Source: Clostridiaceae bacterium
GTDB taxonomy: Bacteria; Bacillota; Clostridia; Acetivibrionales; DTU013
Direction of reading: 5' to 3'
Assembly (NCBI GenBank): GCA_012730015.1
Contig: JAAYBT010000089.1
Coordinates: forward strand, 1 to 49,259
Length of the DNA stretch: 49,259 bases
Shown here piece after piece: positions 1-33,918 of the stretch. The position numbers and the translations under genes were made by a program. The stretch's first letter is position 1; each line of letters starts with the position of its first letter. The notes beneath the pieces are model-generated. The model saw only the letters and a program-made list of their open reading frames with translations. It was not told the origin of the DNA and did not search any database.

Positions 1-378
1 ACCGCCCCGCTTCCCATCGAAGCTGTAGCTTCCATTTGCAAAATCCCATCCACTGAGCTTATCACTGAAAGCCAACGCTGCGCCGGTGGACACATTATCT
101 TTCAAGTCACCCGTAGCATGCATAAGAGCAGTGCGTACAGTTTTGTTCCTATGAAATTCTACAGAACCATCGGTCATCTTATAAAGAACATTATCATGGC
201 GGTCATAAATGATTCCTGACGAAATTGACTTCCCATTCGCGTATAGGTGCTTATTTGCAGGGTAATTAGCCCACTGGGGAGCCTTGGTAAAATACTTGGT
301 CAAAAAGATTGACATTCCGAAGACCAGCGAAACTATTAGAACTAGCAGTACAGCAGCACGTCTTAGAAGTAGCTTCAT
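1..378 (-). CDS. Penicillin-binding protein (class B transpeptidase-like), N-terminal 126 codons; the gene runs off the window start
   Basis: Not in the ORF track because it reaches the edge. My own minus-strand translation from ATG 378-376 reads MKLLLRRAAVLLVLIVSLVFGMSIFLTKYFTKAPQWANYPANKHLYANGKSISSGIIYDRHDNVLYKMTDGSVEFHRNKTVRTALMHATGDLKDNV... and stays open to base 1. It has an N-terminal TM anchor followed by a PBP dimerisation-domain-like pattern. The ATG overlaps the TGA of the upstream SEDS gene (ATGA). Confidence 0.55.
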   Translation of the reverse strand, partial: MKLLLRRAAVLLVLIVSLVFGMSIFLTKYFTKAPQWANYPANKHLYANGKSISSGIIYDRHDNVLYKMTDGSVEFHRNKTVRTALMHATGDLKDNVSTGAALAFSDKLSGWDFANGSYSFDGKRGG

Positions 379-2339
379 TTATGAGCTCCTTTCCTGCCTG
401 TGTCACCTGGCCTATTCTTCGCAATATCGTCTTGCCCGCTAGCCCCCGCAAGCTTATTCTGTCTAATACGGCCGTCGGCAGCCTTGATAAACGCCAGAAG
501 CCCCCAGGATGCAATCATGGAAGAACCCCCATTTGATACAAAGGGGATGGTCACTCCAGTTAGTGGCAAAATATCCATAGAGCCCAGTACATTTAGTCCA
601 GTCTGTATTAGGTAGACAGAGGCCGCGCCGCAGGCTGCGATTGCATAGAAAGAGGATCTGCAGCTTTTCGTAAGAAACACTGCGTAAATCCCAAAGAATA
701 AAATAATCAAAATCGCTATAAGGGCAACAATGAGTCCCCATTCCTCGCATAGCATTCCGAATACCAGATCGGTATCCGCCGCCGCCACATTTACAAGATA
801 TCCATTCCCACCGCCTACACCCAGCAGGCCACCACTTGCGGCATATATCATCGTACGAGTCTGCTGATATCCGGCATCATTGACAAACTCCCACGCATTC
901 CCCCATGTTGCAAAGCGCGTGGCAATATAGGGCAGGAAGACAATCGCGGCTATTGCTCCAAGGACTGCCCCTGAGGATATCAGCGCTATGGTTCGCACGT
1001 CTCCCGAGCGCATAAAAGCAATCACAATGAATGTGCCGAAGAAAACGACCGCCGTGCCCAAATCTCTCATCAATACAAGCGCACAGATACATGCACCCGA
1101 AAATCCAATGAAGGCAGTCATGTTCTGCTTAGTGAGAAGTCTATCCAAGGTGGCAGTACCGGCTAAAACAAATGCAATCTTTACAAATTCAAGCGGCTGA
1201 AAGGTTATAAAGCCAAGGTTAATCCAGTTCTTTGCGCCGTGTCGGGTTTCGCCTATTGTCAGGTTCAATACCAGAAGTAAAATAGCACCGGCCGCAAGAA
1301 CATATTTCAGCTTACGCGCCCTTGCCAGATCATGCATAATAATCCCCAAAGCCGTGTATGCAGCCATACCGAAAACAATGGCCACAAGCTGCTTATACAT
1401 TGAATCGGGAAATGCTGCGGCAACAATTATAAGATTAATGCCGCACAGAAAATAGCTCAACAGCTCAAGCTCGAAGCTTTTCCTGCTGAATCTCCTCGTG
1501 ACGAAATAATAGACAATCTCTATGACAATAAAGGTCGCAAACGCAATCGGAACTGAAGGCTTCTTGTCACTGCCCATTGAAATCCAGATTTGAAGCCCAC
1601 CGAGAAGTTGCGAAAGGACAATTAGCGCCAAAGTGACCCCTGTTTTAAAACTCACGCCTGTAGTGAGATTATTGTTGGCACTATTCTTCTTAGTACCGGT
1701 ATTTGAGGCGCCGCTATTGTCGGCGCTGCTATCTTTGGCGCCATTGCCGGCCAGTGATGTGCCACCGGAGCTTTTGCCGGCTAGTGATGCGCCACCTACA
1801 CTATTACTAGTTTGTGATACCTCACCTGAACTACTATTTGCTGGTGTTGGTGAATTCAGCGTCATCTCAAGGCCTGAAAGTGAAATCACATCGCCAAATA
1901 TCACTGTTGCAGAACCTTCAATCCTCTTGCCATTGATTCTCACACCACCCTTTGAGCTAAGATCGGAAATAGTCCACGCGCCGCTTTGGAATGTGAGTAC
2001 GGCGTGATTTCTCGATGCGAAGGCAAAATCCACCACTATGTCGGACAGCTTGCTTCTTCCCATCGAGTTTTCCCAGTGGTTAAGAGGCTTTCTGGTGCCA
2101 TCGGCCATATCCAGATAGCCCCAAACCGTCTGCGTCTTCTTCACCCGCAAGAGCGGCAGGATGCAGCACAGAAAAATGGCAAGAGACAGTAGCGGAAATA
2201 TCCACCGTAATATCAGAGTATAATATCCGGATACCGCATTGAAATCTAATGATGAGCCGGCGACGCTATCGGCTAAATCATTTAGCAAAGATTGGAGCCA
2301 AGCCCAAAACTGTTTTGCATTTTCTTCAAAAGAATTCAT
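375..2339 (-). CDS. FHA-domain / SEDS (FtsW/RodA/SpoVE-family) fusion protein
   Basis: 654-aa ORF. One N-terminal TM (YTLILRWIFPLLSLAIFLCCILPLL, followed by RVKK). FHA-like core 'SRNHAVLTFQSGAWTISDLSSKGGVRINGKRI...GDVISLSG'. A roughly 70-aa Ser/Gly/Asn/Ala linker. Then about 400 aa of polytopic SEDS region ending in the conserved-type 'PFVSNGGSSMIASWGLL'. Confidence 0.85.
   Translation of the reverse strand: MNSFEENAKQFWAWLQSLLNDLADSVAGSSLDFNAVSGYYTLILRWIFPLLSLAIFLCCILPLLRVKKTQTVWGYLDMADGTRKPLNHWENSMGRSKLSDIVVDFAFASRNHAVLTFQSGAWTISDLSSKGGVRINGKRIEGSATVIFGDVISLSGLEMTLNSPTPANSSSGEVSQTSNSVGGASLAGKSSGGTSLAGNGAKDSSADNSGASNTGTKKNSANNNLTTGVSFKTGVTLALIVLSQLLGGLQIWISMGSDKKPSVPIAFATFIVIEIVYYFVTRRFSRKSFELELLSYFLCGINLIIVAAAFPDSMYKQLVAIVFGMAAYTALGIIMHDLARARKLKYVLAAGAILLLVLNLTIGETRHGAKNWINLGFITFQPLEFVKIAFVLAGTATLDRLLTKQNMTAFIGFSGACICALVLMRDLGTAVVFFGTFIVIAFMRSGDVRTIALISSGAVLGAIAAIVFLPYIATRFATWGNAWEFVNDAGYQQTRTMIYAASGGLLGVGGGNGYLVNVAAADTDLVFGMLCEEWGLIVALIAILIILFFGIYAVFLTKSCRSSFYAIAACGAASVYLIQTGLNVLGSMDILPLTGVTIPFVSNGGSSMIASWGLLAFIKAADGRIRQNKLAGASGQDDIAKNRPGDTGRKGAHK
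1746..1796. repeat. Two 21-nt direct repeats (gccggcYagtgatgYgccacc) at a 30-nt period inside the FHA-SEDS linker
   Basis: Copies at 1746-1766 and 1776-1796 differ at 2 positions. On the minus strand they encode the repeated GG(A/T)SLAG units of the low-complexity linker. Confidence 0.7.
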
Positions 2340-5052: not shown

Positions 5053-8000
5053 ATGAAAAGGTTTCTTTCTTTCACATTAACCATTGTGATGGTTTTAAGT
5101 CTGTGTCTATCGGGCATACCGGTAAGCGCAGCACAAATCGAATTAAAGCCGCTTCCTCAGGTAGGAGAGGTCATTTCCGGCTTTAAGACAACAGAAATAA
5201 AAGATATGGAGCTAATCCAATCAAAGGCCGTCCTGTTCGAGCACGTCAAAACAGGTGCAGAGCTTTTGTACATACAAAGCAAGGATATCGATAGATCCTT
5301 TGAAGTAACCTTCAGAACCCCTGCCGTAGATAACACAGGAGTAAATCACATACTGGAGCACATCACTGTATCAGGCTCGAAAAAATACCCTTTGAAGGAC
5401 CTCCTGTTCACTGTTGCAAATCAGACATATAGTACCTTCATCAATGCATTTACTAGTGCAACCATGACCTCCTACCCTGTATCCTCAATGAGTGAGGAAC
5501 AGCTGCTTAAGCTGACCGACGCATATATGGACTGTGTTTATAATCCTTCAGTTTATGATGATAAGAACATTTTCCTCAGAGAGGGCTGGAGATATGAAAT
5601 GGCTGACGCAGGTGCTCCTCTCACTATTAACGGTATCGTCTATAATGAAATGAAGGGCGCGCTGGGCAATATCTCTTCAGCAGCAAGTAATAATGTTACG
5701 GGCGCTCTGTTCCCTAACAGCGTTCAGTCTAATGTTTCCGGCGGAAAGCCTGAAAACATAAAGGATTTGACCTATGAGCAAATCATAAATACACATAAAA
5801 CATATTACCATCCTTCCAATTCACTTATGGTACTCTATGGCAATCTGGATTACACCAAATTCCTGAAGCTGATTAATGACGAGTATCTTAGCAAGTTCGA
5901 CAAAAAGGCTATCGAAGTGGACGAGGGGATAGTTACGCCATTTACACAGAAGGTTGAGAAAACCTGCGTATTTCCTGTTACTGCGGCTTCCAACACAGAA
6001 AACGCAGCTCAAATCGATTATGCCTTCGCACTTACGAATGTTTCCGATGAGGATTTGATGGGGATTGGTATCCTGGCGTCTGTCCTTAATCAGAACACCT
6101 CTTCATTAAAGCTGGCCTTTGCAGAAAAACAGCTTGGCGGGAGATTGGCTGTTAGCGTTAACGATAGCAAAATTCAGCCAATCATTACATTCTCCGCTCA
6201 AAATACCGACCCAAGCAAGGCAAAGGAATTCAAGGCTTTGGTTGATAATAGCATCGCTGACCTGATTAAGAACGGTTTTGACAAGGAAATGGTAGCTGCT
6301 ACTATTTCATCTACATTGCTTAGTAGCTCAAACATAACTGAGATGAGCAATCTGGGAATCAATCTCGGAATGAGCATAAGCCTTTTGTGGGCAAATTATG
6401 ATAACTTTGATTACTATACTAATGTACTCCAAAACATAGAAGGCATTTCTAAAAAAGTAAGCAAGGGCTACATGGAGGATCTGACATCAAAGTACATCCA
6501 GAAAAACAATCATGCTGCTCTGGTAACTACGGTTCCCGAGGCAGGACTCACTGAGAAACAGGCCGAGCAGGAGCTTCAATACCTGGCAGACCTGAAGGCA
6601 TCCATGACCAGCCAGGAAATCGACAAGATAGTTAGCGATACAAAGGCCTATAATGAATGGAACGCAAGACAGGCTAATGAGACTGACCAGGAAATCGTTA
6701 AAAAGCTTCAGGTAGTTAAGGTTGAAGATTTACCGGTTGAAGTGAAAAAATATGATATCAAGGATGTTTCAAGCAACGACGGCGTAAGGATTATGTCCGC
6801 GCAGGCTGATGTAGGCGCCACAGGCTTGACATCACTGCTCTTGGATACATCCGCAGTGCCAGCTGAAAAGCTCCATTTACTCCAGTTATACACTAGCCTG
6901 CTTGGCAAAGTGAGCACAGAGAATTATACTAGGGAGCAGCTGGCTACACAGGCAATGAGGTATTTGTCCGGAGCCGGCTTCAGTCTTTCAACAATTCCTC
7001 AGGGGGATTGGAATGAATTCGCTCCTATCATTACGACCTCATGGTTGGGAGTAATGGGTGAATATGACGAACAGCTTTCAGTTGTCAAGGAAATACTGCT
7101 CAATACCAAATTTGATGATGCAGCCCCTGTTGTAGACTTAGTAAATCAGCAGATATCAAATATAAAGAATCAAATCACGAACTCACCACTGAACTTGCTG
7201 GTTATGCGTAATCTGGCACTTTCGAACAACTGCAGCAATTATCAAAACTACCTGTCGGGTCTGGACTACTACAATTTCCTTACGGAAGTGGAAAAGGCGC
7301 TCAAGTCCAATCCGGATGCCGTATTGGCTCAATTGGAAGCCATGCATGAGCTGGTAGTCAACCGTACAAACATTATCACCATGTTCTCCGGCAACGAAGA
7401 CAGTATCGCCCAATATGAAAAGGCGATTAAGTCGCTGATTGATGCCCTGCCTGTAAAGGCGATTGTCGCACAGGATTACTCGGCACTACCGACACCTGCA
7501 CAAAGAGAGGCAATTGTAATCGATACACCCGTTCAATACAACATGATTTCAGCCACATATGAGGATATGGGTGCTGAGTTCAACGGTAAATTCTTCCCAA
7601 TCGCATCCGTTATCAGCGAGAACTACATAACGCCGAAGATAAGACTCGGCTATGGGGCTTATGACAACCTTTTAGAATTCAGCACTACCGCCTTTATGAT
7701 GCTGTCCTACAGGGATCCCAACATAAAGGAAACCTTTGATGTATATAAGGGACTGCCGGATTTCGTAAGAAATATCAGCCTCACGCAAGAGGAGCTTGAC
7801 AGATATATATTGAAGGCATTCAGCTCCTCTACTACTACCAGCGGCGAACTGAGCGGAGCAAGCGCTGCAATGAATGATTACCTCATGGGCAAGACCGCAG
7901 ACGATCAGTTAAAGATATTGCGGGAGATTAAGTCTACGACAGTTCAGGACGTAAAGGATTCCGCAGCAATGTTTGAAAAGCTTCTTGAAAAGGGAGTTTA

Positions 8001-8466
8001 CTCAACGGTGGGCAGTGCAGAAAAAATATCCGCTAATAAGGATCTGTACGATTCCATCCTAACCTTTGGGCAGGATCAGGCAGATGAAACCCTCACAAGG
8101 GCACAATTGTTTGAATTACTACTGCAAGGTGTTCCAAATCCGGTTGAGATAGCAAAGCAGCAAGGGCTGTTGCAGGGTGACGGAAAAGGTAACTATTTCA
8201 AAGAAGATAAGCTTACAATGGAGCAGCTTGCAATAATCTTGAACAGATTAGCCCTGATGAACGGCGCACAGCTCGGCGGAGACGAGGTTGTCATAAGCGA
8301 TATGGACTCTGTCAGCTCCTGGGCTAAGGAAAGTGTTCAGGCGCTTGTATACTCAGGCGTCGCCAAGCTTGACGAAAACGGCAATTTCAATCCCAAGGCA
8401 GAGGTGACCGCTTCCACCGCACAAACGCTTGCAATGGACTTGATAAACAAATTGTCAGGCAATTAA
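5053..8466 (+). CDS. Secreted M16-family (insulinase/PreP-like, M16C) zinc peptidase with C-terminal SLH-like repeats
   Basis: 1137 aa. Signal peptide MKRFLSFTLTIVMVLSLCLSGIPVSA|AQ. Inverted zinc motif HxxEH ('NHILEHITVSGSKKYP'). The C-terminal 150 aa carry SLH-like units ('GLLQGDGKGNYFKEDKLTMEQLAIILNRL', 'SDMDSVSSWAKESVQALVYSGVAKLDENGNFNPKAEVTASTAQTLA'). Confidence 0.8.
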   Translation: MKRFLSFTLTIVMVLSLCLSGIPVSAAQIELKPLPQVGEVISGFKTTEIKDMELIQSKAVLFEHVKTGAELLYIQSKDIDRSFEVTFRTPAVDNTGVNHILEHITVSGSKKYPLKDLLFTVANQTYSTFINAFTSATMTSYPVSSMSEEQLLKLTDAYMDCVYNPSVYDDKNIFLREGWRYEMADAGAPLTINGIVYNEMKGALGNISSAASNNVTGALFPNSVQSNVSGGKPENIKDLTYEQIINTHKTYYHPSNSLMVLYGNLDYTKFLKLINDEYLSKFDKKAIEVDEGIVTPFTQKVEKTCVFPVTAASNTENAAQIDYAFALTNVSDEDLMGIGILASVLNQNTSSLKLAFAEKQLGGRLAVSVNDSKIQPIITFSAQNTDPSKAKEFKALVDNSIADLIKNGFDKEMVAATISSTLLSSSNITEMSNLGINLGMSISLLWANYDNFDYYTNVLQNIEGISKKVSKGYMEDLTSKYIQKNNHAALVTTVPEAGLTEKQAEQELQYLADLKASMTSQEIDKIVSDTKAYNEWNARQANETDQEIVKKLQVVKVEDLPVEVKKYDIKDVSSNDGVRIMSAQADVGATGLTSLLLDTSAVPAEKLHLLQLYTSLLGKVSTENYTREQLATQAMRYLSGAGFSLSTIPQGDWNEFAPIITTSWLGVMGEYDEQLSVVKEILLNTKFDDAAPVVDLVNQQISNIKNQITNSPLNLLVMRNLALSNNCSNYQNYLSGLDYYNFLTEVEKALKSNPDAVLAQLEAMHELVVNRTNIITMFSGNEDSIAQYEKAIKSLIDALPVKAIVAQDYSALPTPAQREAIVIDTPVQYNMISATYEDMGAEFNGKFFPIASVISENYITPKIRLGYGAYDNLLEFSTTAFMMLSYRDPNIKETFDVYKGLPDFVRNISLTQEELDRYILKAFSSSTTTSGELSGASAAMNDYLMGKTADDQLKILREIKSTTVQDVKDSAAMFEKLLEKGVYSTVGSAEKISANKDLYDSILTFGQDQADETLTRAQLFELLLQGVPNPVEIAKQQGLLQGDGKGNYFKEDKLTMEQLAIILNRLALMNGAQLGGDEVVISDMDSVSSWAKESVQALVYSGVAKLDENGNFNPKAEVTASTAQTLAMDLINKLSGN

Positions 8467-10214: not shown

Positions 10215-11723
10215 CTATTCTCCAGCCGGTTGATTGTCCGCCAGATTTACCACCTTCGCAGTTGCGCTCTCAACCTCTATCCCGATTCGGCGGTTAATCG
10301 CTGCGGCATCCTTTATGTATGCTCCGTTGGCATCTGTATCTGGAATAATCAATTCGCTTTCACCACGCCCATCAGCAGAAAAAGTCCAGTCGACAGCACC
10401 GTTTTTATTTGCCCAATTCTCAAACCAGCTTCTCACTGCCTCGGCCCTTTCCTTTGACAGCCTCAGGTTCTCTTCGGCTGTTCCGCTGCTGTCCGTATGA
10501 CCGACAAATTTGATTGAACACTTGCTGTAATTAAAGGTTAACTTCTTTGCAAAGGCCTCAAGCCTAAGAGCAGCTTCGCCCTTTAGCTGTGAGCTGCCTA
10601 AGCCGAACATCGCATCGCTGGGCAGTGAATTTGGCATGCGCATTTCCGATACCGCCTCGAAGGGTTCTGCTCCCGGGAGCCTCCACAAATCAAGCCTGCC
10701 ATCCTTTCTCGCAACAGCAAGATGTCTGCTGTCGGGAGTAAAGGCAAGCTCCACGATTGTGTCTGTATCATCGTCACTAAATGTCTGATCCAATGTGTAT
10801 AGCAAAGTATGTGTTGAAACATCCCAAATTGTTACAGCCTTTAACGATGCAACCGCAAGTAGGCTACTGTCAGGAGAAAAGTCCATATCCCTATAACCAT
10901 CAGGAATTGAAAGATCTGCCAGCGGCGAAGCTGCACCAGACATCCACAGACGCACCAGATGCTTGTACTCTTCCTTTATTGCTGCGGCCATTATTTTCCC
11001 ATCAGGTGAGAATTGAAAAGGGTCCTTTATTCCCCCTAAATAATTATTTAGCGTGATTGAGTGAACTACCTCTTTTGATTCAATATCCCAAATGGTAACT
11101 GTACCTTTATCTGTCCACTGGGAAGCAGCGAGTAATTTGCCTGACTGATCGTATGTCAGCGAAGTAATCCAATCAGTACTGGGCATTTTCAGGGCAGCTA
11201 GCTGCTCGCCGCTTTTGATATCCCAAAGTCTCACTTTTCCGTCACTGTTTCCCGTAGCCATTTGTCCGCCGGACGAAAAGGCTACCCGACTACTGCTAAA
11301 GCCATTGTGTAATTCACGCAGCTTGTTTCCATTGGCAGTATCAGTCAACCATATACCATCCATATCGAAACCAACGCCGAGAAGCGCCCCGTCGGGTGAG
11401 AAAGCAAGATCATCAGTCATGTTTTGATAAACATATACTTCGTCGAGTAGTCCATCTGCAATCCTGTGACAATAAACAGTGCGGTTTTCACCTATGGCCA
11501 CATTTCCATCCGCAGATATGGCCAGACTGATAAGTTCATTCTCGTGCTTCACAGTCCATAGCTGCTCCGGGTTCTCTACAACGGCCTGCTCCGTCACGTC
11601 ATCAGATGGCTTGTCCGGTATATTGTCCTCCTTGTCGGCACAGGCAGAGGCTAAAATCAACATGATAACCAATAGTGACAAAATGAGATAATGCTTAAAA
11701 GTTCTTCTTTGGAAATGTTTCAT
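10215..11723 (-). CDS. Lipoprotein with a WD40 beta-propeller and a C-terminal OmpA/MotB-like peptidoglycan-binding domain
   Basis: 502 aa. Signal and lipobox-like 'LVIMLILASAC'. WD repeats end in 'VRLWDIKSGE', 'VTIWDIESKE', 'VRLWMSG', 'VTIWDVSTHT' and 'LDLWRLPG'. C-terminal OmpA_C motif 'FVGHTDSSGTAEENLRLSKERAEAVRSWF'. Confidence 0.8.
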   Translation of the reverse strand: MKHFQRRTFKHYLILSLLVIMLILASACADKEDNIPDKPSDDVTEQAVVENPEQLWTVKHENELISLAISADGNVAIGENRTVYCHRIADGLLDEVYVYQNMTDDLAFSPDGALLGVGFDMDGIWLTDTANGNKLRELHNGFSSSRVAFSSGGQMATGNSDGKVRLWDIKSGEQLAALKMPSTDWITSLTYDQSGKLLAASQWTDKGTVTIWDIESKEVVHSITLNNYLGGIKDPFQFSPDGKIMAAAIKEEYKHLVRLWMSGAASPLADLSIPDGYRDMDFSPDSSLLAVASLKAVTIWDVSTHTLLYTLDQTFSDDDTDTIVELAFTPDSRHLAVARKDGRLDLWRLPGAEPFEAVSEMRMPNSLPSDAMFGLGSSQLKGEAALRLEAFAKKLTFNYSKCSIKFVGHTDSSGTAEENLRLSKERAEAVRSWFENWANKNGAVDWTFSADGRGESELIIPDTDANGAYIKDAAAINRRIGIEVESATAKVVNLADNQPAGE

Positions 11724-20010: not shown

Positions 20011-21810
20011 TTACTTACCCGCTGCAGCATTCTTGACATCCAGTTCGATCTGCCACTTAGCAAGGTCGAACTCAACCAGTTCTTCGTAGCCATTACCAAT
20101 CATCTGCTCTACCATCTCATCCCACAAAGCATCGAATTTAGCTTCGCTGCCGCAGAAGATCATCTTCCAGGAGTATTCCTCGAGAACCTCTCCGCAGGAG
20201 TTACGATAGACAGCAACATCGTTCGTGTCGCTTGGCAGCGATACGCTGACATTCGGGCTAACCAGCAGTACGTTGTTCTTCTTCATCCACTCTGCAGGTT
20301 CAGCTGCGCCGAACTTAGCAGCCCAGTCTTTCTTCATCTGGGTCTGTATAGATGCCTTGTATGAGCTCCAATAATCCTTGCTGTAGGGCTCACCGGTATT
20401 CGGATTAGTGCTTATAGCATCAACGAGCCACTGATTGATTGCATTGTTACCATCGTTGAATCCGCCACCGCCGAACTCTTCAGGGACAGGAAGATTATCC
20501 ATCAATGCGTTTTCGTTCATAATGGTGAATTTTCCGTCAGGGCCAACTGTATAGTTGAAGCCTTCAATACCATTATGAGCAAATTGCAACCCTTCAGGGC
20601 TTGCATACCAATCAAGGAATTCCATAATTCTTGCATACTTCTCATCGTCAACACCCGAGCCTACACCAAAGACACGACCGCTGCCATAGTATGTATCGGA
20701 ATCCTGATAATACTTCTGATCCTTTACAGGAATAAAGATATACGCTGAGCCATCTGCAAGCTTGTCAGCCGTATTCCAGAAACCAACCTGCCAGCTGTAC
20801 CAGAGTAAATGAACCTGGCCGGCTGTAATCTTCGGATATACTGCGTTCCAATCCTGATCCTTGGAGTCAGGATCTACAAGACCTCTCTGCTGTGCATCAA
20901 ACAGGAAGTGCAGCATCTTGTAGTATGTTCCGGATTTGTCGGTTAACTTATAGAAAGTTCCGTCCGGCTTTAATACAACAGAGCCTTTAATTTTCTCTCC
21001 ATACCAGGTTGTCAGCTGAACAACATTTGCAATACCCAACATATTGTCGCCGCCATCCCAGTCAGGCCACAGGGTCATTGCATAGCACGGATCACCGGCT
21101 TCATTCTTCGGATGAATTTTCTGCATTTCTGCAAGAGCGTCCAGAAGTCCGTCCAAATCAGCGATATCAGGAGCTCCGATTTGGTTATACAAATCCCAGC
21201 GAAGCAAAGGACTTGAATAAATAACATCCTGTGAATATGATGTCGGAGAAGTGTTTGTCATCTGACAGGGTAACCCAAAGATTTTGCCTGCGTCATTTCC
21301 CGGTAAGCCTTTATTGAATACTTCGATCTGATCCATATAATCCATCAGGTTAGGCCATTGTGTAATTTCAGCACTGATATCCTTTATTAATCCATTCTGA
21401 TAACAGTCTGCAAAATCTGTAGCCTCAAGGATAACGATATCACCCAGATTACCAGAGCTGATACGTGTCTGGTATAATGCGTCTCCGGCTACCTGTGGCG
21501 CAAGGATATTGAGTGCCAGATTAAATCTGTCCTTTATAACCTTGTCAAACCATCCGCTTTGCAGTCCCTGATAATTTGCTGCCACATCATAAATGTCAAT
21601 TGTCAGCTGTTTATCATGAGATATAGCTGCGGCATCCCCGTTTTCGGTCTTACTTCCGCTGTCCGTCTCAGTCTTGCTTCCGCTGTCTGCCGGTGTCTGA
21701 GCCGTTGTAGCGTCCTTGTTATCGCCCGCAGTATTCCCGCAGCCGGTTAAAAGAGCTACCACAACAAGAGACATTACCAGCAGCAATGATATTACCTTTT
21801 TGAACCCCAT
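20011..21810 (-). CDS. Extracellular solute-binding lipoprotein of a carbohydrate ABC importer (large LplA-like type)
   Basis: 599 aa. Lipobox 'ALLTGC'. A Thr/Ser/Asp-rich linker with duplicated 'DSGSKTE'. SD GGGAGG. Confidence 0.8.
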   Translation of the reverse strand: MGFKKVISLLLVMSLVVVALLTGCGNTAGDNKDATTAQTPADSGSKTETDSGSKTENGDAAAISHDKQLTIDIYDVAANYQGLQSGWFDKVIKDRFNLALNILAPQVAGDALYQTRISSGNLGDIVILEATDFADCYQNGLIKDISAEITQWPNLMDYMDQIEVFNKGLPGNDAGKIFGLPCQMTNTSPTSYSQDVIYSSPLLRWDLYNQIGAPDIADLDGLLDALAEMQKIHPKNEAGDPCYAMTLWPDWDGGDNMLGIANVVQLTTWYGEKIKGSVVLKPDGTFYKLTDKSGTYYKMLHFLFDAQQRGLVDPDSKDQDWNAVYPKITAGQVHLLWYSWQVGFWNTADKLADGSAYIFIPVKDQKYYQDSDTYYGSGRVFGVGSGVDDEKYARIMEFLDWYASPEGLQFAHNGIEGFNYTVGPDGKFTIMNENALMDNLPVPEEFGGGGFNDGNNAINQWLVDAISTNPNTGEPYSKDYWSSYKASIQTQMKKDWAAKFGAAEPAEWMKKNNVLLVSPNVSVSLPSDTNDVAVYRNSCGEVLEEYSWKMIFCGSEAKFDALWDEMVEQMIGNGYEELVEFDLAKWQIELDVKNAAAGK

Positions 21811-26673: not shown

Positions 26674-26951
26674 TGTATTTCAATAAATAGATAGCTATTC
26701 ATATAGACACAAAAAGAAGGTTCTATAATAAATGTTGGGTTGACTAAAATAGACATTTAGCTCTCCAACATTTTTTAGCATAAAAAAGGAGCATAGAATT
26801 GCAATCTCAAGTAAAATGAAGTTACGACACACCATTTGAAAGGAGATACAATGTCTGATCGAAAGCTAATTGATATATAGATTAAACCTGAAGTACACAA
26901 GGAATACACATCAGTGTTATATAATCATCTCCTAGAAAGTAACAAAGGGAG

Positions 26952-27854
26952 ATGGGGCAAATAATTACGATGTTGCCAAAAATACGTGTACATATCAAAA
27001 ATCAGCTAAAACAGTTACCAATAATACTTTTTCTATTGCCAAGCTTATGTGGTTTTCTTCTGTTTTACCTTGTACCATTCGTTGCAGGAATTGGCTATGC
27101 ATTGACAGATAACCCTATTAACGGCAAGTTTGTCGGGCTCGAAAATATCGTTGGGCTTTTCAAAAACAAGGCTTTTTTACTGGCATTGAAAAACACTATG
27201 GCCTTTATGATACCCTCTGTATTCCTTAGTAGTGTTCTGCCTCTTCTGTTAGCACTGCCCCTCCTGCGCACCGTACTATGTCCAAAGGCTGTCAAAACGA
27301 TGTTTGTATCCCCAATTGCAGTACCGGCAGCGACTATCGTTTTATTCTGGCAGATTTTTTTCGATGATAACGGAGTCATGAACCATATGCTCACAGACCT
27401 ACATATAAAACCATTGGATTGGATCAATGGACAATGGGGTATTGCGGTAGCAGTAATCGTTTTTCTATGGAAAAACCTTGGATACAACATGATTATCTAC
27501 ACTGTCGGATTAACCAATATTCCAGCTGAGTACTATGAAGCTGCAGAGATTGATGGTGCGGGGTTATTTAGAAAATTTACACATATCACACTTCCGGGAC
27601 TTGTTCCAACAATATTTTTTATCATTACCATTTCAATTGTAAACTGCTTCAAGATATTCCGTGAAATATACCTTCTCTTTGGAAGAAACCCTAATGAAAA
27701 TGTTTACATGCTGCAGAATTTTATGAACAACATGTTTCTTGAACTAAATTATCCAAAGCTTACATCAGCTGCATATGTCATAACAGCATTTATTACTTTA
27801 GTACTTCTAGCCACGTATGTAATTGAAAAGAAAGCGTCGGAGAACTATTTTTGA
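26952..27854 (+). CDS. ABC transporter permease, binding-protein-dependent MalF/UgpA-like
   Basis: 300 aa, EAA-loop 'EAAEIDGAGLFRKFTHITLPG'. Confidence 0.85.
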   Translation: MGQIITMLPKIRVHIKNQLKQLPIILFLLPSLCGFLLFYLVPFVAGIGYALTDNPINGKFVGLENIVGLFKNKAFLLALKNTMAFMIPSVFLSSVLPLLLALPLLRTVLCPKAVKTMFVSPIAVPAATIVLFWQIFFDDNGVMNHMLTDLHIKPLDWINGQWGIAVAVIVFLWKNLGYNMIIYTVGLTNIPAEYYEAAEIDGAGLFRKFTHITLPGLVPTIFFIITISIVNCFKIFREIYLLFGRNPNENVYMLQNFMNNMFLELNYPKLTSAAYVITAFITLVLLATYVIEKKASENYF

Positions 27855-27895
27855 TGTTGATATCATTTAAATTTATCTGTAAGGAAGGGGCAGAA

Positions 27896-28759
27896 ATGCA
27901 TAAGGTATTTTTTACAATTTTATTAATATTGATTGGATTAGCAATGGTTTTTCCCATGATATTCACGCTTGCTGATTCCTTTATGGCTAACTGGGAAATT
28001 TCAGAGTACTATAATGCTGATGAAAAAGCGGAAAAAGCACCGGCTTCATCTGAGTCATACATGGATTTCAGGCTTATCCCTTATGAGGCTACACTCCAGC
28101 AATATAAAACGGTTCTTATTGCACGGCCACAATACCTATTCATGTTCTGGAATTCATTAAAGCTTGCGCTGCCCATAGCAATCGGTCAGCTTATTATTTC
28201 AGCAATGGCTGCATATGCCTTTTCATTACTAAAATCAAAATTCGCAGGAACACTCTACTTTACCTATATTGTCGTAATGCTTCTGCCATTTCAGGTGACA
28301 CTTGTCCCGAATTATATGATAGCTCAAAAGCTTGGCATGATGGGCAGCAGTCTTTCTATTATATTGCCGGGCATTTTTGGAACCTTCGGAGTATTTCTTT
28401 TAAGGCAATTTGCCGTTTCCATACCAATTAGCTATATAGAAGCTGCAAAAATTGATGGAGCAGGGCATTTTAGTATATTTATCAAAATTGTACTTCCGCT
28501 GTTGAAGCCGGGGATGGCAGCTCTTTTTATACTGTTGTTCATGGATAACTGGAATATGGTGGAGCAGCCTTTGATCTTTCTGAGTGATCCACTCAAAGAG
28601 CCTCTGTCTGTTTTTCTTTCAACCATCAACGATGAGGAGCCAGGCATTGCCTTTGCGGCCGCTTTTATCTACATGCTCCCAATGATACTGGTCTTTTTGT
28701 ATGGTGAGGAGGATATGGTCAATGGCATTGGAATTCAACTTGCAGGAATTAAAGGGTAG
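27896..28759 (+). CDS. ABC transporter permease, MalG/UgpE-like
   Basis: EAA-loop 'EAAKIDGAGHFSIFIKIVLP'. I prefer ATG 27896 (AAGGAAGGGG 5 nt upstream); the track start at 27851 is a TTG. Confidence 0.85.
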   Translation: MHKVFFTILLILIGLAMVFPMIFTLADSFMANWEISEYYNADEKAEKAPASSESYMDFRLIPYEATLQQYKTVLIARPQYLFMFWNSLKLALPIAIGQLIISAMAAYAFSLLKSKFAGTLYFTYIVVMLLPFQVTLVPNYMIAQKLGMMGSSLSIILPGIFGTFGVFLLRQFAVSIPISYIEAAKIDGAGHFSIFIKIVLPLLKPGMAALFILLFMDNWNMVEQPLIFLSDPLKEPLSVFLSTINDEEPGIAFAAAFIYMLPMILVFLYGEEDMVNGIGIQLAGIKG

Positions 28760-28763
28760 TAAT

Positions 28764-30017
28764 ATGGAGGATAAAATGAATGTAGTAATTAATGGCATGA
28801 TACAACCAACAAGAAAGAAGATTTTAAGGCGTACAATATATATATTTGTTGCCGTATTGCTGCTACTTACTTTTTTGTCGAGCACGATCAATAACCTGGG
28901 ACTTATACGTGTTGTAGCCGCTGACGTCGGATCCGGCAGACTCTCATATGATTTTGAAAACGATGTGATTGTGACTCCGCAACAGATAGAGGAAATATAT
29001 CTGAATCGTGCGCTCAAGGTAGATAGTATAAAGGTTGAAAAGGGAGATATTGTATCGAAGGGGCAATTACTTGCTGAATTTGATGTAGATGAGCTATCAA
29101 AGGACTTGAGCCTAAAAGTTTCGGAGTTGGAAAGTAAAAAGGTAGAGACAAATCTGGCCGTCAACGTAAGCAGTCTGGCTATTAAGAATGCCGTAGAAAA
29201 GACTGCAGCAGCACAAAAAGCCCATGATGACGCTATTGAGCTTTATGAAGCAGGGGCTGAAACTGCTGCAAACATAGAAAAGATGAAAATCGCTCTCGAA
29301 GATGCAAAAAGTGAGTATGAAAAGCTTCAGGCTGAAAAGGCAGCAACGGCAGCCAAGGCGCACATCGAGCTGAAACAGCTTGAAGAAAGCATCCTTTCAC
29401 TTCAAACAGATATTAATAGGTTGAAAGCCCTTTATTCTCCTGTTGACGGCTATATATGGGAGATTGGTATAAATAGGGGTGCTACAACCGATACTGCAAA
29501 ACCAGTTTTTAAGATTGCCGATAATAGCAGAGGATTTCATGCTGAATTTACTGTAAAAACACAAGAAGGTAAGCACCTAGTTGTGGGAGATAGTGTGACG
29601 GTTCGTATTCCATCACTGGAAAATGTAAAAATGGATGCGAAGATCAGCTCAATCGATCTTGTAAGGGCTGATACAGGTAATGCCCTGAAAATAAATCTTA
29701 TATTTGACAGAGCTGATTTAAAGGGAGGTGAGCTAGCGGAAACATCTATAAAAAAGTCATCCGGTATATATAACTTGATCATTCCTAATGCAGCAATCCG
29801 TGTTGATACGAATGGCAGGAAGTATGCGTATGTGATAAAGGAGAGGAAAAGCTCAATTGGTAAAGAGTATTACCTTCAAAAGGCCTTCATCTATGTCAGT
29901 GCTTCAGATAATGTAAATACGGCAATATCAGATGGATTGAAGCCGTTCGAAAAAGTGGTGATCGAGAGTTCCAGCACTGTGATGGCCGGTGACAGAGTTA
30001 AGATTCAGAGGGATTAG
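28764..30017 (+). CDS. HlyD-family membrane-fusion (periplasmic adaptor-like) protein
   Basis: 417 aa from ATG 28764 (alternative ATG at 28776). One N-terminal TM 'IYIFVAVLLLLTFLSS'. Lipoyl-like 'VEKGDIVSKGQLLAEFD'. An Ala/Glu/Lys-rich predicted coiled coil. 'YSPVDGYIWEIG' and a C-terminal beta-barrel-like region. Confidence 0.75.
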   Translation: MEDKMNVVINGMIQPTRKKILRRTIYIFVAVLLLLTFLSSTINNLGLIRVVAADVGSGRLSYDFENDVIVTPQQIEEIYLNRALKVDSIKVEKGDIVSKGQLLAEFDVDELSKDLSLKVSELESKKVETNLAVNVSSLAIKNAVEKTAAAQKAHDDAIELYEAGAETAANIEKMKIALEDAKSEYEKLQAEKAATAAKAHIELKQLEESILSLQTDINRLKALYSPVDGYIWEIGINRGATTDTAKPVFKIADNSRGFHAEFTVKTQEGKHLVVGDSVTVRIPSLENVKMDAKISSIDLVRADTGNALKINLIFDRADLKGGELAETSIKKSSGIYNLIIPNAAIRVDTNGRKYAYVIKERKSSIGKEYYLQKAFIYVSASDNVNTAISDGLKPFEKVVIESSSTVMAGDRVKIQRD

Positions 30018-30073
30018 TATAAGGGTACAAATTAAACGCAAAAATATGATATTATGTTAAGAGAGGACTCATT

Positions 30074-31462
30074 ATGAAAAGGATATGTTCAATAGTACTT
30101 GTTCTATTATTAATATTAACTTCTGCAGCATGCAGCAGTAAAGAAGAAGCTGACATTTCTACAATTGGGAATGCTGATAAAACACCCGTACAAACTCCGG
30201 AAGCTGCGGATACAAAAGCTCCTGTATTAGATATGGGCAAGGAAGACAATACAAGAATCACCATTGCAACGAGTATGCAGTATAACAGATTCCTGGAGAT
30301 CGCTGTTGAGAAATTTCAAAATGATAATCCCGGAATTATTGTTGAAATAAATAGCTATACCAGCATGGGTGAAACCCTGACACAGCAAACCGAAGATGGC
30401 GGCATGTTAGTTGTTAGTGAGAATACCGATCCGGGAGGAGAAAAGTATATAAAAACAATAAATACAGAACTGATGTCTGGTGCTGGCCCGGATATCATTG
30501 ATACATATTATGTTCCTTGCGGAAAATTTGCCGACAATGGCTTCTTAACAGATATGCGCCTGATTATGCAGCAGGACACCAGCTTTGATATCAGTGGATA
30601 TTATGAGAACATTATGCTTGGAAATCAATATAAGGGTGGGCTATACTCCATACCGCTCGGATTTATAGTAAATATGCTCTCAGGTAAATATGTTCTCCCT
30701 CAAGAAACCATATCGAAGGGCTTCACCTGGGACGCGTTTTTTAAGACAGCAACCGATCTGCTGGCAGCCAAGGGAGTGAAGGAACCATATGTTTTATATG
30801 AGGGTGAAGAAGATCTATTCAGAGCATTATGGAATAGTAATTACAGCAATTTCATAAAGGAAGATACGAAAGAATGCAACTTTACCTCCGGAGAATTTGT
30901 TGATCTAATAAAAATGATTAAAGACGCTGCGGATAAAAGGTTTCTGTATCATTCCGTAGAGCAGGCGGCTTCGGATAAGAGCTGGGAGAATATATACTTT
31001 TATCAAAGCTTTTTTGATGCATACTTGCTGGAAGCTTATAATAACCCAAAGGAGGGCAATTTTGCCTGCGGGATTCCATCCTCTACCGGCGACTCCATTA
31101 TAAGTGCCGATATATTTCAGGAATATGGGATAAACAACAATTCCAAAAGCAAGGGTGCAGCGTGGAAGTTTCTAAAATATCTCATTTCGGAAGAAATGCA
31201 GTCATCACCTGAATTATTTTTATTTCCTATAAATAAAAATGCCATGGCTGCGAAAATCAAAAGAGAGAATAGTGATGCTGTACAAATAGATAGGACAGCT
31301 TATGATCCGGTATTTTTAAAAATTATTGTGAATCCGGATAGGGATTGGCAAATTTCGGAAATCGTAGCGGAAGAAACAATGAAATACTTTGAGGGACAAA
31401 GGACTGCTGAGGATACAGCCCGTATTATACAGAGCAGAGTTGATATAATGATCAAGGAATAA
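30074..31462 (+). CDS. Extracellular solute-binding lipoprotein (family 1)
   Basis: 462 aa, lipobox 'LTSAAC', SD GAGAGGA. Confidence 0.8.
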   Translation: MKRICSIVLVLLLILTSAACSSKEEADISTIGNADKTPVQTPEAADTKAPVLDMGKEDNTRITIATSMQYNRFLEIAVEKFQNDNPGIIVEINSYTSMGETLTQQTEDGGMLVVSENTDPGGEKYIKTINTELMSGAGPDIIDTYYVPCGKFADNGFLTDMRLIMQQDTSFDISGYYENIMLGNQYKGGLYSIPLGFIVNMLSGKYVLPQETISKGFTWDAFFKTATDLLAAKGVKEPYVLYEGEEDLFRALWNSNYSNFIKEDTKECNFTSGEFVDLIKMIKDAADKRFLYHSVEQAASDKSWENIYFYQSFFDAYLLEAYNNPKEGNFACGIPSSTGDSIISADIFQEYGINNNSKSKGAAWKFLKYLISEEMQSSPELFLFPINKNAMAAKIKRENSDAVQIDRTAYDPVFLKIIVNPDRDWQISEIVAEETMKYFEGQRTAEDTARIIQSRVDIMIKE

Positions 31463-31483
31463 TAAATAGTGGAGATGCTGTAA

Positions 31484-32167
31484 ATGGATAATAAGGTTTT
31501 GCTTGTGGAAGATGATGATAGTTTGAGGGAAATCATAACCGATTATTTTGAACAGGGTGGCTTCATTGTGGAAGGAGCTTCTAGTGGATTGATGGCGCTC
31601 GAATTGTGGGAAAACAGCAAATATGATTTGGCGCTTTTGGACATCATGCTGCCTGAAATTGATGGATTCTCGCTATGCAGGCGCCTTCGAAAAACTTCTG
31701 ATATACCAATCATCATCATTACAGCCAGAGATGACGAGGATGATAAAATAATCGGCTATGAGCTTGGTGCGGATGATTATGTAACCAAACCCTTCAGCGT
31801 AAAATTTCTCCTGGCAAAATCACAAAACCTCATCAAAAGGTCGAATGGAACAATCGGCAGCCAAACGGCGAATGTTCTCGAAGGGGCCGGCATCAGGGTT
31901 GAACTGCTTTCCAGAAATGTAACCATAGACGGTCAAAGGATAGAGCTTTCCCCAAAGGAACACGACCTGCTGGTTACATTGATGGAAAACAAGGATCGGA
32001 TTATGACAAGAGAAATGCTCCTTGAAAAGGTCTGGGGATATGATTATTTTGGCGATTCAAGAGCCGTTGACACCCATATACGCAGACTTCGGGCAAAATT
32101 GGGCAGCAAAGCTATACACATAAGTACACGGATGAAAGCCGGATATAAATTTGAGGATAGCTTATGA
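31484..32167 (+). CDS. OmpR-family response regulator
   Basis: 'VLLVEDDDSLRE', 'LDIMLPEIDG', and winged-helix 'VWGYDYFGDSRAVDTHIRRLRAKL'. Confidence 0.9.
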   Translation: MDNKVLLVEDDDSLREIITDYFEQGGFIVEGASSGLMALELWENSKYDLALLDIMLPEIDGFSLCRRLRKTSDIPIIIITARDDEDDKIIGYELGADDYVTKPFSVKFLLAKSQNLIKRSNGTIGSQTANVLEGAGIRVELLSRNVTIDGQRIELSPKEHDLLVTLMENKDRIMTREMLLEKVWGYDYFGDSRAVDTHIRRLRAKLGSKAIHISTRMKAGYKFEDSL

Positions 32168-33918
32168 TGAGGTTGTTAAGACAGATATGGGATAAGGTCC
32201 GGTCCCGGCAAATAAGTATAACCTGGAAGATCTTTCTCGTCACGGCAATCATTTTCATTGTATTCATATTAGCATGGATTGCGTTTCAATCGCTGTTTCT
32301 TGAGAAAATCTATTCTGCTGTGAAAGAAACGCAATCCATCAAAGAAATTCAGAGCTTTTGTGACAGATATTCTTCGAACAACTGGGATCGGGCAGCTATG
32401 GACACTGAAATATCAAGGATGTCGGATTTGCATGATCTCCAGATAGTCATTTTAAATGAATATGGGAACGATAAACACGGCGGAATGATAATGCTAATAA
32501 AAGATGCGGACGGAAGAGAGATCAGTACCGATCTACATGATGTTCGTTTTATTGACATCCTGAAAGATGCAGGCTTGAAGACAGGTGCGAAAGTCAAGAT
32601 TTTTGGGGTGTTTGATCAGAGTGGCTCAATGCTGTACCCATATAAAATAAATGTTGGAGATACCGAATGGAAACGTGACGGAAGAAGTGAAACAGATAAA
32701 GAACATCGGTGGCCTGGTACTGCTTCTCCTTATAAAAATGATGATATGGTGCAGTTAGAGGGCACAGTTGAATATTTGAGGGTGATGAGTGAGACCGAAT
32801 ATGTAGATTCCAGTTCGCCTTTTCTGGTATTGAAGGCAGCCTTAAAGCAATGGCAGGATGACAATGTGAAGCTGCCTTCTCAGTATTTGATTCGTGAGTA
32901 TAATGATACGGTAACAGGAACCCGTTACAAAATGCTGATCATCCCGTTCTCTGCACAGGATGGAAGCAAAGAGGCTGTATTTGCAATTGTTCCGCTTCAG
33001 CCATTGGATGAAGCCATTGAGCTCATAAAGAATTATATGTGGGTCGTTTTTCTAGCTGCACTTGTGCTCGTTTCAGTGCTTTCTTTTATTTTTTATAGAA
33101 TGGTTACAAAACCTCTCATTCAAATGAATAAAGCCGCCATAAAAATGTCTCATATGGATTTCAATACCCAATGTGAAATCCATACGCACGATGAATTGGG
33201 CAGTCTTTCAAGCAGTCTCAATATAATGTCTACCCGACTGGATTCTACAATAACGGAGCTTAAGGAATTTGTTTCAAATGCTTCCCATGAGCTAAAGACA
33301 CCTATTGCAGTAATAGGCGGGTATGCAGAGGCACTTAAGGATGATATCCGAAAGGATAAAAGAGACAGGTATATAGATAGGCTGCAGCAAGAAGCAGGCA
33401 GAATGAATTTGCTGGTACAGGATATGCTAGACCTCTCCCGGATGGAGTCAGACTCCATAAAATTAAAAAAAGAGATCATTGATTTGTATTGTTTGGCAAA
33501 GGAAGTCCTGGAAGAGTTTAGTGACCTATTTCAGGAGAAGCATATTAAACCGATATTGCAGATTGAACAAGACTCTGCCATAGTTATTGGCGACCATATC
33601 AAGCTGAGGCAGGTAATTCAGAATTTTATCTCAAATGCTCTCATACATACGCCTCTCAATGGCATGATATGGATCACAGCAGAGAAACATGATGATAAAG
33701 TAACTTTCATGATAGAAAATGAAGGGATTCACATTTCTGAAGAAAAAATCAATAAGATATGGGACAGGTTTTACAGGGTAGAAGCTTCCAGGAGCGGAAA
33801 CAGCACAGGGACAGGCCTTGGTCTGGCGATTTCTGCAAAAATATTGCAGCTCCATCATGCAAATTATGGGGCCACGAACACAGAAAGAGGTGTAATGTTC
33901 TTCTTTAGCATGCACTAG
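32164..33918 (+). CDS. Sensor histidine kinase (two TM segments flanking an extracytoplasmic domain of about 250 aa, then HAMP, HisKA, HATPase_c)
   Basis: H-box 'SNASHELKTPIAVI' and G2-box 'GTGLGLAI'. The start overlaps the RR stop (ATGA). Confidence 0.9.
   Translation: MMRLLRQIWDKVRSRQISITWKIFLVTAIIFIVFILAWIAFQSLFLEKIYSAVKETQSIKEIQSFCDRYSSNNWDRAAMDTEISRMSDLHDLQIVILNEYGNDKHGGMIMLIKDADGREISTDLHDVRFIDILKDAGLKTGAKVKIFGVFDQSGSMLYPYKINVGDTEWKRDGRSETDKEHRWPGTASPYKNDDMVQLEGTVEYLRVMSETEYVDSSSPFLVLKAALKQWQDDNVKLPSQYLIREYNDTVTGTRYKMLIIPFSAQDGSKEAVFAIVPLQPLDEAIELIKNYMWVVFLAALVLVSVLSFIFYRMVTKPLIQMNKAAIKMSHMDFNTQCEIHTHDELGSLSSSLNIMSTRLDSTITELKEFVSNASHELKTPIAVIGGYAEALKDDIRKDKRDRYIDRLQQEAGRMNLLVQDMLDLSRMESDSIKLKKEIIDLYCLAKEVLEEFSDLFQEKHIKPILQIEQDSAIVIGDHIKLRQVIQNFISNALIHTPLNGMIWITAEKHDDKVTFMIENEGIHISEEKINKIWDRFYRVEASRSGNSTGTGLGLAISAKILQLHHANYGATNTERGVMFFFSMH

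Follow-up and report, generated by a model that had tools for sequence, protein, structure and literature searches.

Does an ATP-binding cassette (ABC) transporter with the permeases of an importer make use of the adaptor protein of an efflux pump, and if so, in which direction would it work? This question is raised by a six-gene operon at positions 26952-33918 (plus strand) of contig JAAYBT010000089.1 from a Clostridiaceae bacterium of the order Acetivibrionales (assembly GCA_012730015.1), where the stretch of 49,259 nucleotides that was analysed is referred to here as the window. The operon encodes two permeases of the MalF/MalG type, a membrane fusion protein (MFP), a substrate-binding protein (SBP), a response regulator (RR) and a sensor histidine kinase (HK). 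ABC folds have been taken to predict the direction of transport, where a type I permease fold with an SBP signifies import and an MFP or MacB protein signifies efflux, and the system described here crosses that divide. Sequence comparison identified the operon as a member of a widespread and undescribed Gram-positive ABC family, in which importer-type permeases and an SBP are inherited with an efflux-type MFP.

The original prediction of six co-directional and tightly spaced genes was borne out by a check of open reading frames (ORFs). Permease 1 (MalF/UgpA-like; 26952-27854) overlaps permease 2 (MalG/UgpE-like; 27851-28759) by 4 nt and both start codons are ambiguous, with an alternative at 26970 for permease 1 and a choice between TTG 27851 and ATG 27896 for permease 2. 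The ATG of the MFP gene (28764-30017; 417 aa) lies 4 nt past the permease 2 stop codon, and a longer MFP reading frame would begin at 28701. A gap of 56 nt separates the MFP gene from the SBP gene (30074-31462), which encodes a family-1 lipoprotein of the CbpC type, and a further 21 nt separates the latter from the gene for an OmpR/PhoB-family RR (31484-32167), whose stop overlaps the start of the HK gene (32164-33918) by 4 nt. A search for a plus-strand intrinsic terminator after the HK gene was negative, with only a minus-strand hairpin at 34058-34025. The six genes probably constitute a single operon marked by a conserved operator, with the RR and HK as parts of the same unit. All domain calls made earlier for the six proteins were upheld by profile, structure-prediction and fold searches.

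The HlyD/MFP architecture that had been proposed for the product of 28764-30017 passed every profile and fold test applied to it. Pfam matches to HlyD_D23 (E 3e-10) and HlyD_3 (E 5e-9) were both above gathering cut-offs, the NCBIfam model TIGR01730 (RND_mfp) gave a score of 89.3 that is slightly below its cut-off of 94.9, and the MFP profile matched EmrA and MacA in the PDB. The AlphaFold2 (AF2) model (pLDDT 85.4) comprises a transmembrane (TM) helix at residues 15-45, a lipoyl domain, an alpha-hairpin whose two helices are 54 residues each, a beta-barrel and a C-terminal membrane-proximal beta domain. Foldseek aligned this model with AcrA, MacA, MexA, ZneB and CusB over approximately 370-390 columns (E about 1e-19), and EmrA was also among the full-length matches. 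The protein has the anchor, lipoyl, alpha-hairpin, beta-barrel and membrane-proximal domains of the adaptors in Transporter Classification (TC) family 8.A.1. The exporter partner expected to be encoded alongside such an adaptor was not found, as the cassette has no RND, MFS, ABC_membrane or nucleotide-binding domain (NBD)-bearing MacB gene, and the genes conserved next to the MFP gene encode an SBP and permeases of the type I importer fold.

Approximately 23 orthologue clusters of the MFP (46-100% identity) were recovered, and one orthologue matched the Pfam BSH_YknX family. Mean MFP identity within the window clade was 50%, and the best-conserved parts were the TM helix (0.61) and the membrane-proximal domain (0.67), through which the MFPs of known pumps contact their partner in the inner membrane. 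Some MFPs of the family reach 600-700 aa (L009 4445-6499; L089 7900-9732; L167) through insertion of a long, acidic stretch of low complexity or lengthening of the coiled coil in the hairpin, implying that their reach from the membrane depends on lineage.

Both permeases matched BPD_transp_1 (permease 1, E 2.4e-13; permease 2, E 5.9e-14). The EAA loops previously noted in both proteins are present and unchanging across the subfamily, with the EAAxxDGAG motif of permease 2 invariant in 13 diverse members, and such invariance argues for genuine ATP-coupled transport. The cassette has the two BPD_transp_1 subunits, each with an EAA coupling loop, and the cognate family-1 SBP that characterize CUT1 importers. 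The best NCBIfam models were UgpA and GlcT for permease 1 and UgpE, GlcU and MalG for permease 2, with MalF and MalG also nearest, and all of these scores were far under equivalog cut-offs. MFP-linked permeases from all clades scored 155-490 bits against the window pair (155-481 bits against permease 1 alone), whereas the four ordinary CUT1 permeases of the window scored only 51-67 bits against the cassette pair. Judged by these scores, the cassette permeases are a subfamily of their own and not ordinary CUT1 members. In a search of 1.84 billion representative proteins, permease 2 matched 365 clusters at E ≤1e-30 among 24,770 detectable MalG-like clusters.

The six-gene synteny is conserved beyond this genome in unrelated contexts and is therefore no chance juxtaposition. 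Four orthologous loci on long contigs (MFP identity 48-61%) have the order permease, permease, MFP, SBP, RR and HK within entirely different flanks, with a second SBP gene at one of them, and the same order was found in seven GTDB species representatives and holds down to an MFP identity of 47%. More distant MFPs (20-29% identity), including those of Paenibacillus and many Lachnospiraceae, likewise directly follow a permease pair. A search with the permeases only, blind to the MFP, returned at least 577 stretches in species-representative genomes. The best 80 of these contained 77 non-redundant loci whose downstream sequence extended for 1.3 kb or more, and at 76 of them the next gene on the same strand encoded an MFP (median gap 24 nt). 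The core of permease, permease, MFP and SBP was present in more than 100 species-level genomes, and an SBP gene, often in several copies, occurred in all cassettes examined.

Pairwise distances for permease 2 and the MFP were correlated (r=0.89 over 114 loci), a value that none of 999 permutations reached and into which shared species history also feeds, while the two permeases were correlated with each other at r=0.96. This co-diversification speaks against several independent acquisitions of the MFP, and the permease-MFP linkage is both strict and ancient. Chance association and an ordinary sugar importer were rejected as explanations on the basis of conservation, the distinct permease subfamily and co-diversification. 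Single polypeptides that join permease 2 to the MFP (L171 2513-4561; P0215) were considered as potential Rosetta-stone evidence and discarded, because their junctions resemble stop-codon read-through or frameshift and one of the contigs carries a fragmented permease 1. A fusion of this kind would be topologically feasible, as the permease ends and the MFP begins on the cytoplasmic side, and would imply a 1:1 stoichiometry.

The original prediction treated a conserved MacB/FtsX-type neighbour of the MFP in relatives as evidence against a new architecture. This objection has some basis, since most relatives encode a MacB-like protein of approximately 460 aa after the MFP, composed of a TM helix, a MacB periplasmic core domain and three to four further TM segments. 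Its profile matched the YknZ periplasmic domain (E 7e-17) and the TM1-periplasmic core domain-TM2 region of MacB (E 2e-16) in the PDB; its C-terminal half matched nothing, and Pfam detected MacB_PCD only and no FtsX domain. However, the MacB-like protein comes without a dedicated ATPase, never substitutes for the MalFG-type pair and has been lost at least twice. The combination of a MacB/FtsX permease and a cognate ATPase that typifies type VII ABC systems is not present here, and neither the window nor any other member of its clade has the MacB-like gene itself.

When rooted on ordinary CUT1 members, the permease tree resolved into three large groups. Group I consists of Lachnospiraceae with SBPs of approximately 800 aa and no MacB-like gene, and Group II of rumen and Oscillospiraceae lineages that have the MacB-like gene and rarely a two-component system (TCS). 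Group III includes Paenibacillus, Ruminiclostridium, Geosporobacter, Desulfotomaculum and the window clade, and mostly has both the MacB-like gene and a TCS; a TCS adjoins most Group III cassettes and many of those in Lachnospiraceae. The MacB-like gene is missing from the window clade, which branches within Group III, and also from a separate subclade of Paenibacillus with P. spongiae among its members, indicating at least two losses in which the MFP was kept. Overall, the MFP was retained in three lineages without the MacB-like gene. As the MacB-like protein has no ATPase and was lost while the MFP was kept, the MFP is not simply the leftover half of an ordinary MacB-type exporter.

The lack of an ATPase gene had also been pointed out, and this is correct for the operon but is not unusual. 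No ORF of at least 150 aa with a Walker A motif was detected anywhere in the window, and none of its three CUT1 permease pairs has an ATPase gene. Sharing of orphan ATPases has been described for Clostridia (PMC9601137), and together with the ATPase-less CUT1 pairs this makes the absence unremarkable. Where relatives do encode an ATPase within the cassette, as a few do (L064, L072 and L079), it is of the MalK importer type (ABC_tran + OB_MalK + TOBE_2).

The RR was the most conserved protein of the cassette (77% mean identity in the window clade) and contains Response_reg and Trans_reg_C domains, while the HK contains HAMP, HisKA and HATPase_c domains. Hydrophobic segments at HK residues 23-41 and 292-310 leave an outside domain of approximately 250 aa, so that the earlier description of an OmpR-type RR with a kinase bearing an extracytoplasmic domain of this size was accurate. 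The outside domain is conserved at 49% within the window clade, and had no match in Pfam and no sequence match in the PDB even at E ≤10.

Upstream of permease 1 lies a putative RR operator, GTACACAAGGAATACACA (26893-26910, plus strand), in which two TACACA repeats stand one helical turn apart (GTACACA-AGGAA-TACACA; 11-bp period). The operator overlaps the -35 position and is followed after 9 nt by the -10 box TATAAT of the operon promoter (26920-26925, plus strand), a spacing conserved in orthologous loci. With no more than two mismatches and at the same distance to TATAAT, it was found upstream of permease 1 in all eight other loci of the window clade (nine of nine with the window itself), where it is preserved although the surrounding intergenic DNA is unalignable. 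The window contains no other perfect copy, and chance alone would yield 0.08 matches there at up to three mismatches. Such a layout is that of a classic OmpR/PhoB-type activator site standing in for the -35 box. At the level of sequence, the receiver and winged-helix RR, the HisKA kinase and the direct-repeat operator at the promoter are the elements of an autoregulated OmpR/PhoB operon, and the cassette's own RR probably drives all six genes through this operator.

The SBP matched SBP_bac_1 and SBP_bac_8 in Pfam and has a signal peptide with an invariant Cys20, which is followed by a tether of approximately 45 aa. Its AF2 model (pLDDT 84) has the two-lobed SBP fold, and the leading Foldseek matches were all CUT1 SBPs, of which the first was CbpC of Clostridium thermocellum (7X0O; TM-scores 0.65/0.70). 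CbpC was also the only significant sequence relative in the PDB (E 3e-12; next match 1e-3), at a low identity of about 19-25%. SBPs of the family are often tandem fusions (839 and 843 aa, with two SBP domains each) or occur as four to seven adjacent paralogues (L008 368-7131; L131; L146; L153), and in L008 the SBP genes are separated from the permeases by a gene for a subtilase that has no signal peptide.

CbpC belongs to transporter C of C. thermocellum, a four-gene system (Clo1313_2783-2786 = Cthe_2125-2128) composed of msdC1, msdC2, a fourth gene and cbpC (PMC11212667, PMC8303734), and an 'acra' gene is named in the legend of an operon figure (PMC9601137). From the texts of these three papers we infer that the fourth gene (Cthe_2127) is a putative MFP gene, which would give transporter C the permease, permease, MFP and SBP order of the window. 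In these papers, transporter C has no reported adjacent TCS and is viewed as a putative importer of cellodextrins, and the MFP goes without discussion. A scan with exact CbpC peptides returned Acetivibrio relatives only and not the C. thermocellum genome, and a homologue search returned two short proteins. The closest CbpC relatives that were fetched (84-88% identity; L122 9785-11164 and L123 2153-3444) are orphan SBP genes of other Acetivibrio genomes with no permease or MFP nearby. The proposal of an undescribed transporter architecture therefore holds in part: a literature search found no paper on an importer-type ABC system with an MFP, which is weak evidence of absence as coverage was incomplete, but the architecture is not confined to this genome and transporter C has apparently been drawn with 'acrA'.

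The explanation that best accounts for these data, in which our confidence is no better than even, is one operon encoding an MFP-bearing ABC system of the importer type that works in the import direction. The operon would be induced by its own OmpR-type TCS through the direct repeat overlapping the -35 position, and uptake would take place when the 250-aa outside domain of the HK senses its signal. The machine would be built from the MalF/MalG-type pair with its type I importer fold, a lipid-anchored CbpC-type SBP and the membrane-anchored MFP. The MFP would be a fixed subunit of the transporter that touches the permeases through its TM helix and membrane-proximal domain, with the lipoyl, barrel and hairpin domains positioned above the SBP docking face of the permeases. 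Energy would most likely come from a MalK/MsmK-type ATPase that is encoded elsewhere and shared with the other CUT1 systems of the genome. The substrate would be a ligand other than cellodextrins, probably bulky or envelope-associated, that is taken from the wall zone. Import is preferred on structural precedent, given the type I fold, the SBP, the MalK-type ATPases of relatives and the multiplied SBP genes. The earlier suggestions that the MFP forms a wall-spanning conduit, or that the transporter runs in an export mode, remain speculation.

Several observations weigh against import. To our knowledge, the MFPs and MacB-type periplasmic domains characterised so far act in efflux, expulsion or mechanotransmission only and never in import, and an OmpR-type TCS beside an ABC transporter in Firmicutes usually marks a detoxification module. 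A review of MFP and MacB systems supports this efflux-only record (PMC5985334). The regulation of the cassette also differs from that of the sugar systems in the window, which lie on the minus strand among glycoside hydrolases with a YesM-type kinase, an AraC-type RR and a LacI repressor. In other genomes the cassette is not consistently beside glycoside hydrolases, many of its flanks are unrelated to carbohydrate use, and their mixed content (Ig-like, lectin and SLH proteins, Lon, HypF, GltB) gives no substrate signal. CbpC bound neither glucose, G2-G5 cellodextrins nor xylose by isothermal titration calorimetry and nuclear magnetic resonance, its cleft is obstructed by an extra loop, and loss of transporter C left growth on glucose, cellobiose and Avicel/cellulose unimpaired (Yan et al. 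2022, PMC9601137); the operon is scarcely transcribed on cellulose (PMC5327387). Binding by CbpC was reported in an earlier study, as cited in a later paper (Nataf 2009, in PMC11212667). Finally, a small long-branch permease subclade (L128, L134, L136 and L141), in which permease 2 is shortened to approximately 257 aa, has lost the MFP. This subclade could serve as a natural control for the contribution of the MFP.

Much of this evidence, together with the ATPase-less MacB-like protein that most family members carry beside the MFP, favours a reading in terms of expulsion or mechanotransmission, which we consider possible but doubtful. The MalFG pair, its ATPase and the SBP would then be the motor of a MacAB-like device in which ATP-driven opening and closing of the docked SBP replaces the MacB periplasmic domain, the TCS would sense a threat, and a compound of the wall zone or surface (an antimicrobial peptide, lipid-linked molecule or surfactant) would be pushed out through the MFP sleeve. 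An importer-fold engine would in that case have been wired to an efflux adaptor, and ancestrally also to a periplasmic module derived from MacB, and would act, in a formulation that we advance only tentatively, as a bellows that expels or extracts an envelope compound without importing a nutrient. On the other hand, no type I importer-fold ABC system is known as an exporter or mechanotransducer, the ATPases found within cassettes bear regulatory domains of the MalK kind, as is usual in sugar importers, the up to four to seven SBP genes per locus resemble diversification for ligand capture, and no family member has a known resistance phenotype.

A sensory role, in which transporter, SBP and MFP act as co-sensor of the HK through flux sensing (as in BceAB-BceS) or SBP sensing (as in LuxP-LuxQ and TorT-TorS), is improbable. 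It would account for the adjoining TCS of most Group III and many Lachnospiraceae cassettes, the conserved HK outside domain of no recognised fold could dock an SBP, two SBP genes are present in L004 and L013, and signalling from SBPs to kinases is an established mechanism (review PMC8050422, as cited in PMC9601137). Its weakness is that the rumen and Oscillospiraceae group retains the permeases, MFP, MacB-like protein and SBP, rarely with an adjacent TCS, which makes a purely sensory function less likely. Moreover, the invariant EAA loops favour ATP-coupled transport, and the operator indicates control of the cassette by the TCS but is no evidence of signalling from cassette to TCS. More unlikely still is the existence of two separate systems, where an ordinary sugar importer lies beside the MFP of an exporter encoded elsewhere or beside the decaying remnant of a MacAB-like system. 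The MacB-like genes found with the MFP in most relatives, and the RND_mfp score slightly under cut-off, would be compatible with a remnant. However, the window MFP is intact and under constraint, as seen in its clade identity and in TM and membrane-proximal segments that hardly vary, is separated from the adjacent genes by 4-56 nt and belongs to a family in which three lineages kept it without the MacB-like gene. It has also co-diversified with permeases that are not ordinary CUT1 members, and the MacB-like proteins themselves have neither an ATPase nor an FtsX signature.

The MFP-bearing importer-type system has parts in common with several characterised systems. With CUT1 importers (TC 3.A.1.1; MalFGK2-MalE, UgpAEC-UgpB, MsmEFGK) it shares two EAA-loop BPD_transp_1 permeases, a family-1 lipoprotein SBP and, where the cassette encodes an ATPase, one of the MalK type, an unlinked ATPase being otherwise common in Firmicutes. 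It differs from them in its separate permease subfamily, a nearly constant MFP, a frequent MacB-like protein, an OmpR-type TCS in place of LacI or YesMN regulation, and a studied SBP relative that binds no tested sugar. YknXYZ with YknW of B. subtilis and Spr0693-0694-0695 of S. pneumoniae have a membrane-anchored MFP of the same four-domain fold, but these systems possess a MacB/FtsX permease with its own ATPase, and neither an SBP nor MalFG-type permeases. The MacB-like partner found in relatives, though not in the window itself, resembles YknZ in its periplasmic domain, but lacks an ATPase and the FtsX Pfam signature and has a divergent C-terminal half. BceAB-BceRS is similar in the genetic coupling of an ABC transporter to a controlling OmpR-type TCS. 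However, Bce permeases are of the 10-TM FtsX type and Bce kinases are intramembrane-sensing with no outside domain, whereas the cassette permeases are 6-TM BPD_transp_1 proteins and its HK has the large outside domain described above.

No current model of an importer or an efflux pump explains this combination, which extends over at least 365 sequence clusters and well over 100 species, including Paenibacillus, Ruminiclostridium, Lachnospiraceae, Oscillospiraceae and Desulfotomaculum. Either importers can use an adaptor, which would bear on the role of MFPs in cells without an outer membrane, or an importer fold runs an expulsion device. If the latter were true, this would be the first ABC exporter or mechanotransducer with an importer fold, and one that is widespread in Bacillota across gut, rumen and soil genera. 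Annotation and metabolic models count such loci as sugar importers, a label that the C. thermocellum data suggest is wrong. The question is a tractable one, as C. thermocellum and several Paenibacillus species are cultured and genetically tractable and a crystal structure of one SBP exists.

The cassette is the only plus-strand block in a minus-strand region of approximately 37 kb (8628-45406) devoted to plant-glycan utilisation, and its guanine-cytosine (GC) content is 0.37-0.41 compared with 0.44-0.47 in the surroundings. At another locus (L003) the cassette adjoins integrase and HicAB genes. The opposite strand, low GC content, varying flanks and these L003 neighbours suggest that the cassette is mobile and was horizontally acquired.

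Other genes of the window also drew attention. Directly upstream of a CUT1 permease pair, at the position of an SBP gene, a 599-aa ORF (20011-21810, minus strand) had no Pfam match at E ≤1e-5 and may be a very divergent LplA-like SBP. Between GH39 and GH31 genes, a 502-aa protein (10215-11723, minus strand) joins a WD40-type beta-propeller to an OmpA-family peptidoglycan-binding domain at its C-terminus, a pairing that is unusual in a spore-forming Firmicute. A surface-anchored insulinase-type protease is encoded at 5053-8466 (plus strand; 1137 aa), where an M16/PreP-like peptidase carries a C-terminal S-layer homology domain. Near the start of the window, a 654-aa protein (375-2339, minus strand) consists of an FHA domain fused to a FtsW/RodA/SpoVE-family protein, suggesting phospho-threonine-dependent control of a SEDS glycosyltransferase.

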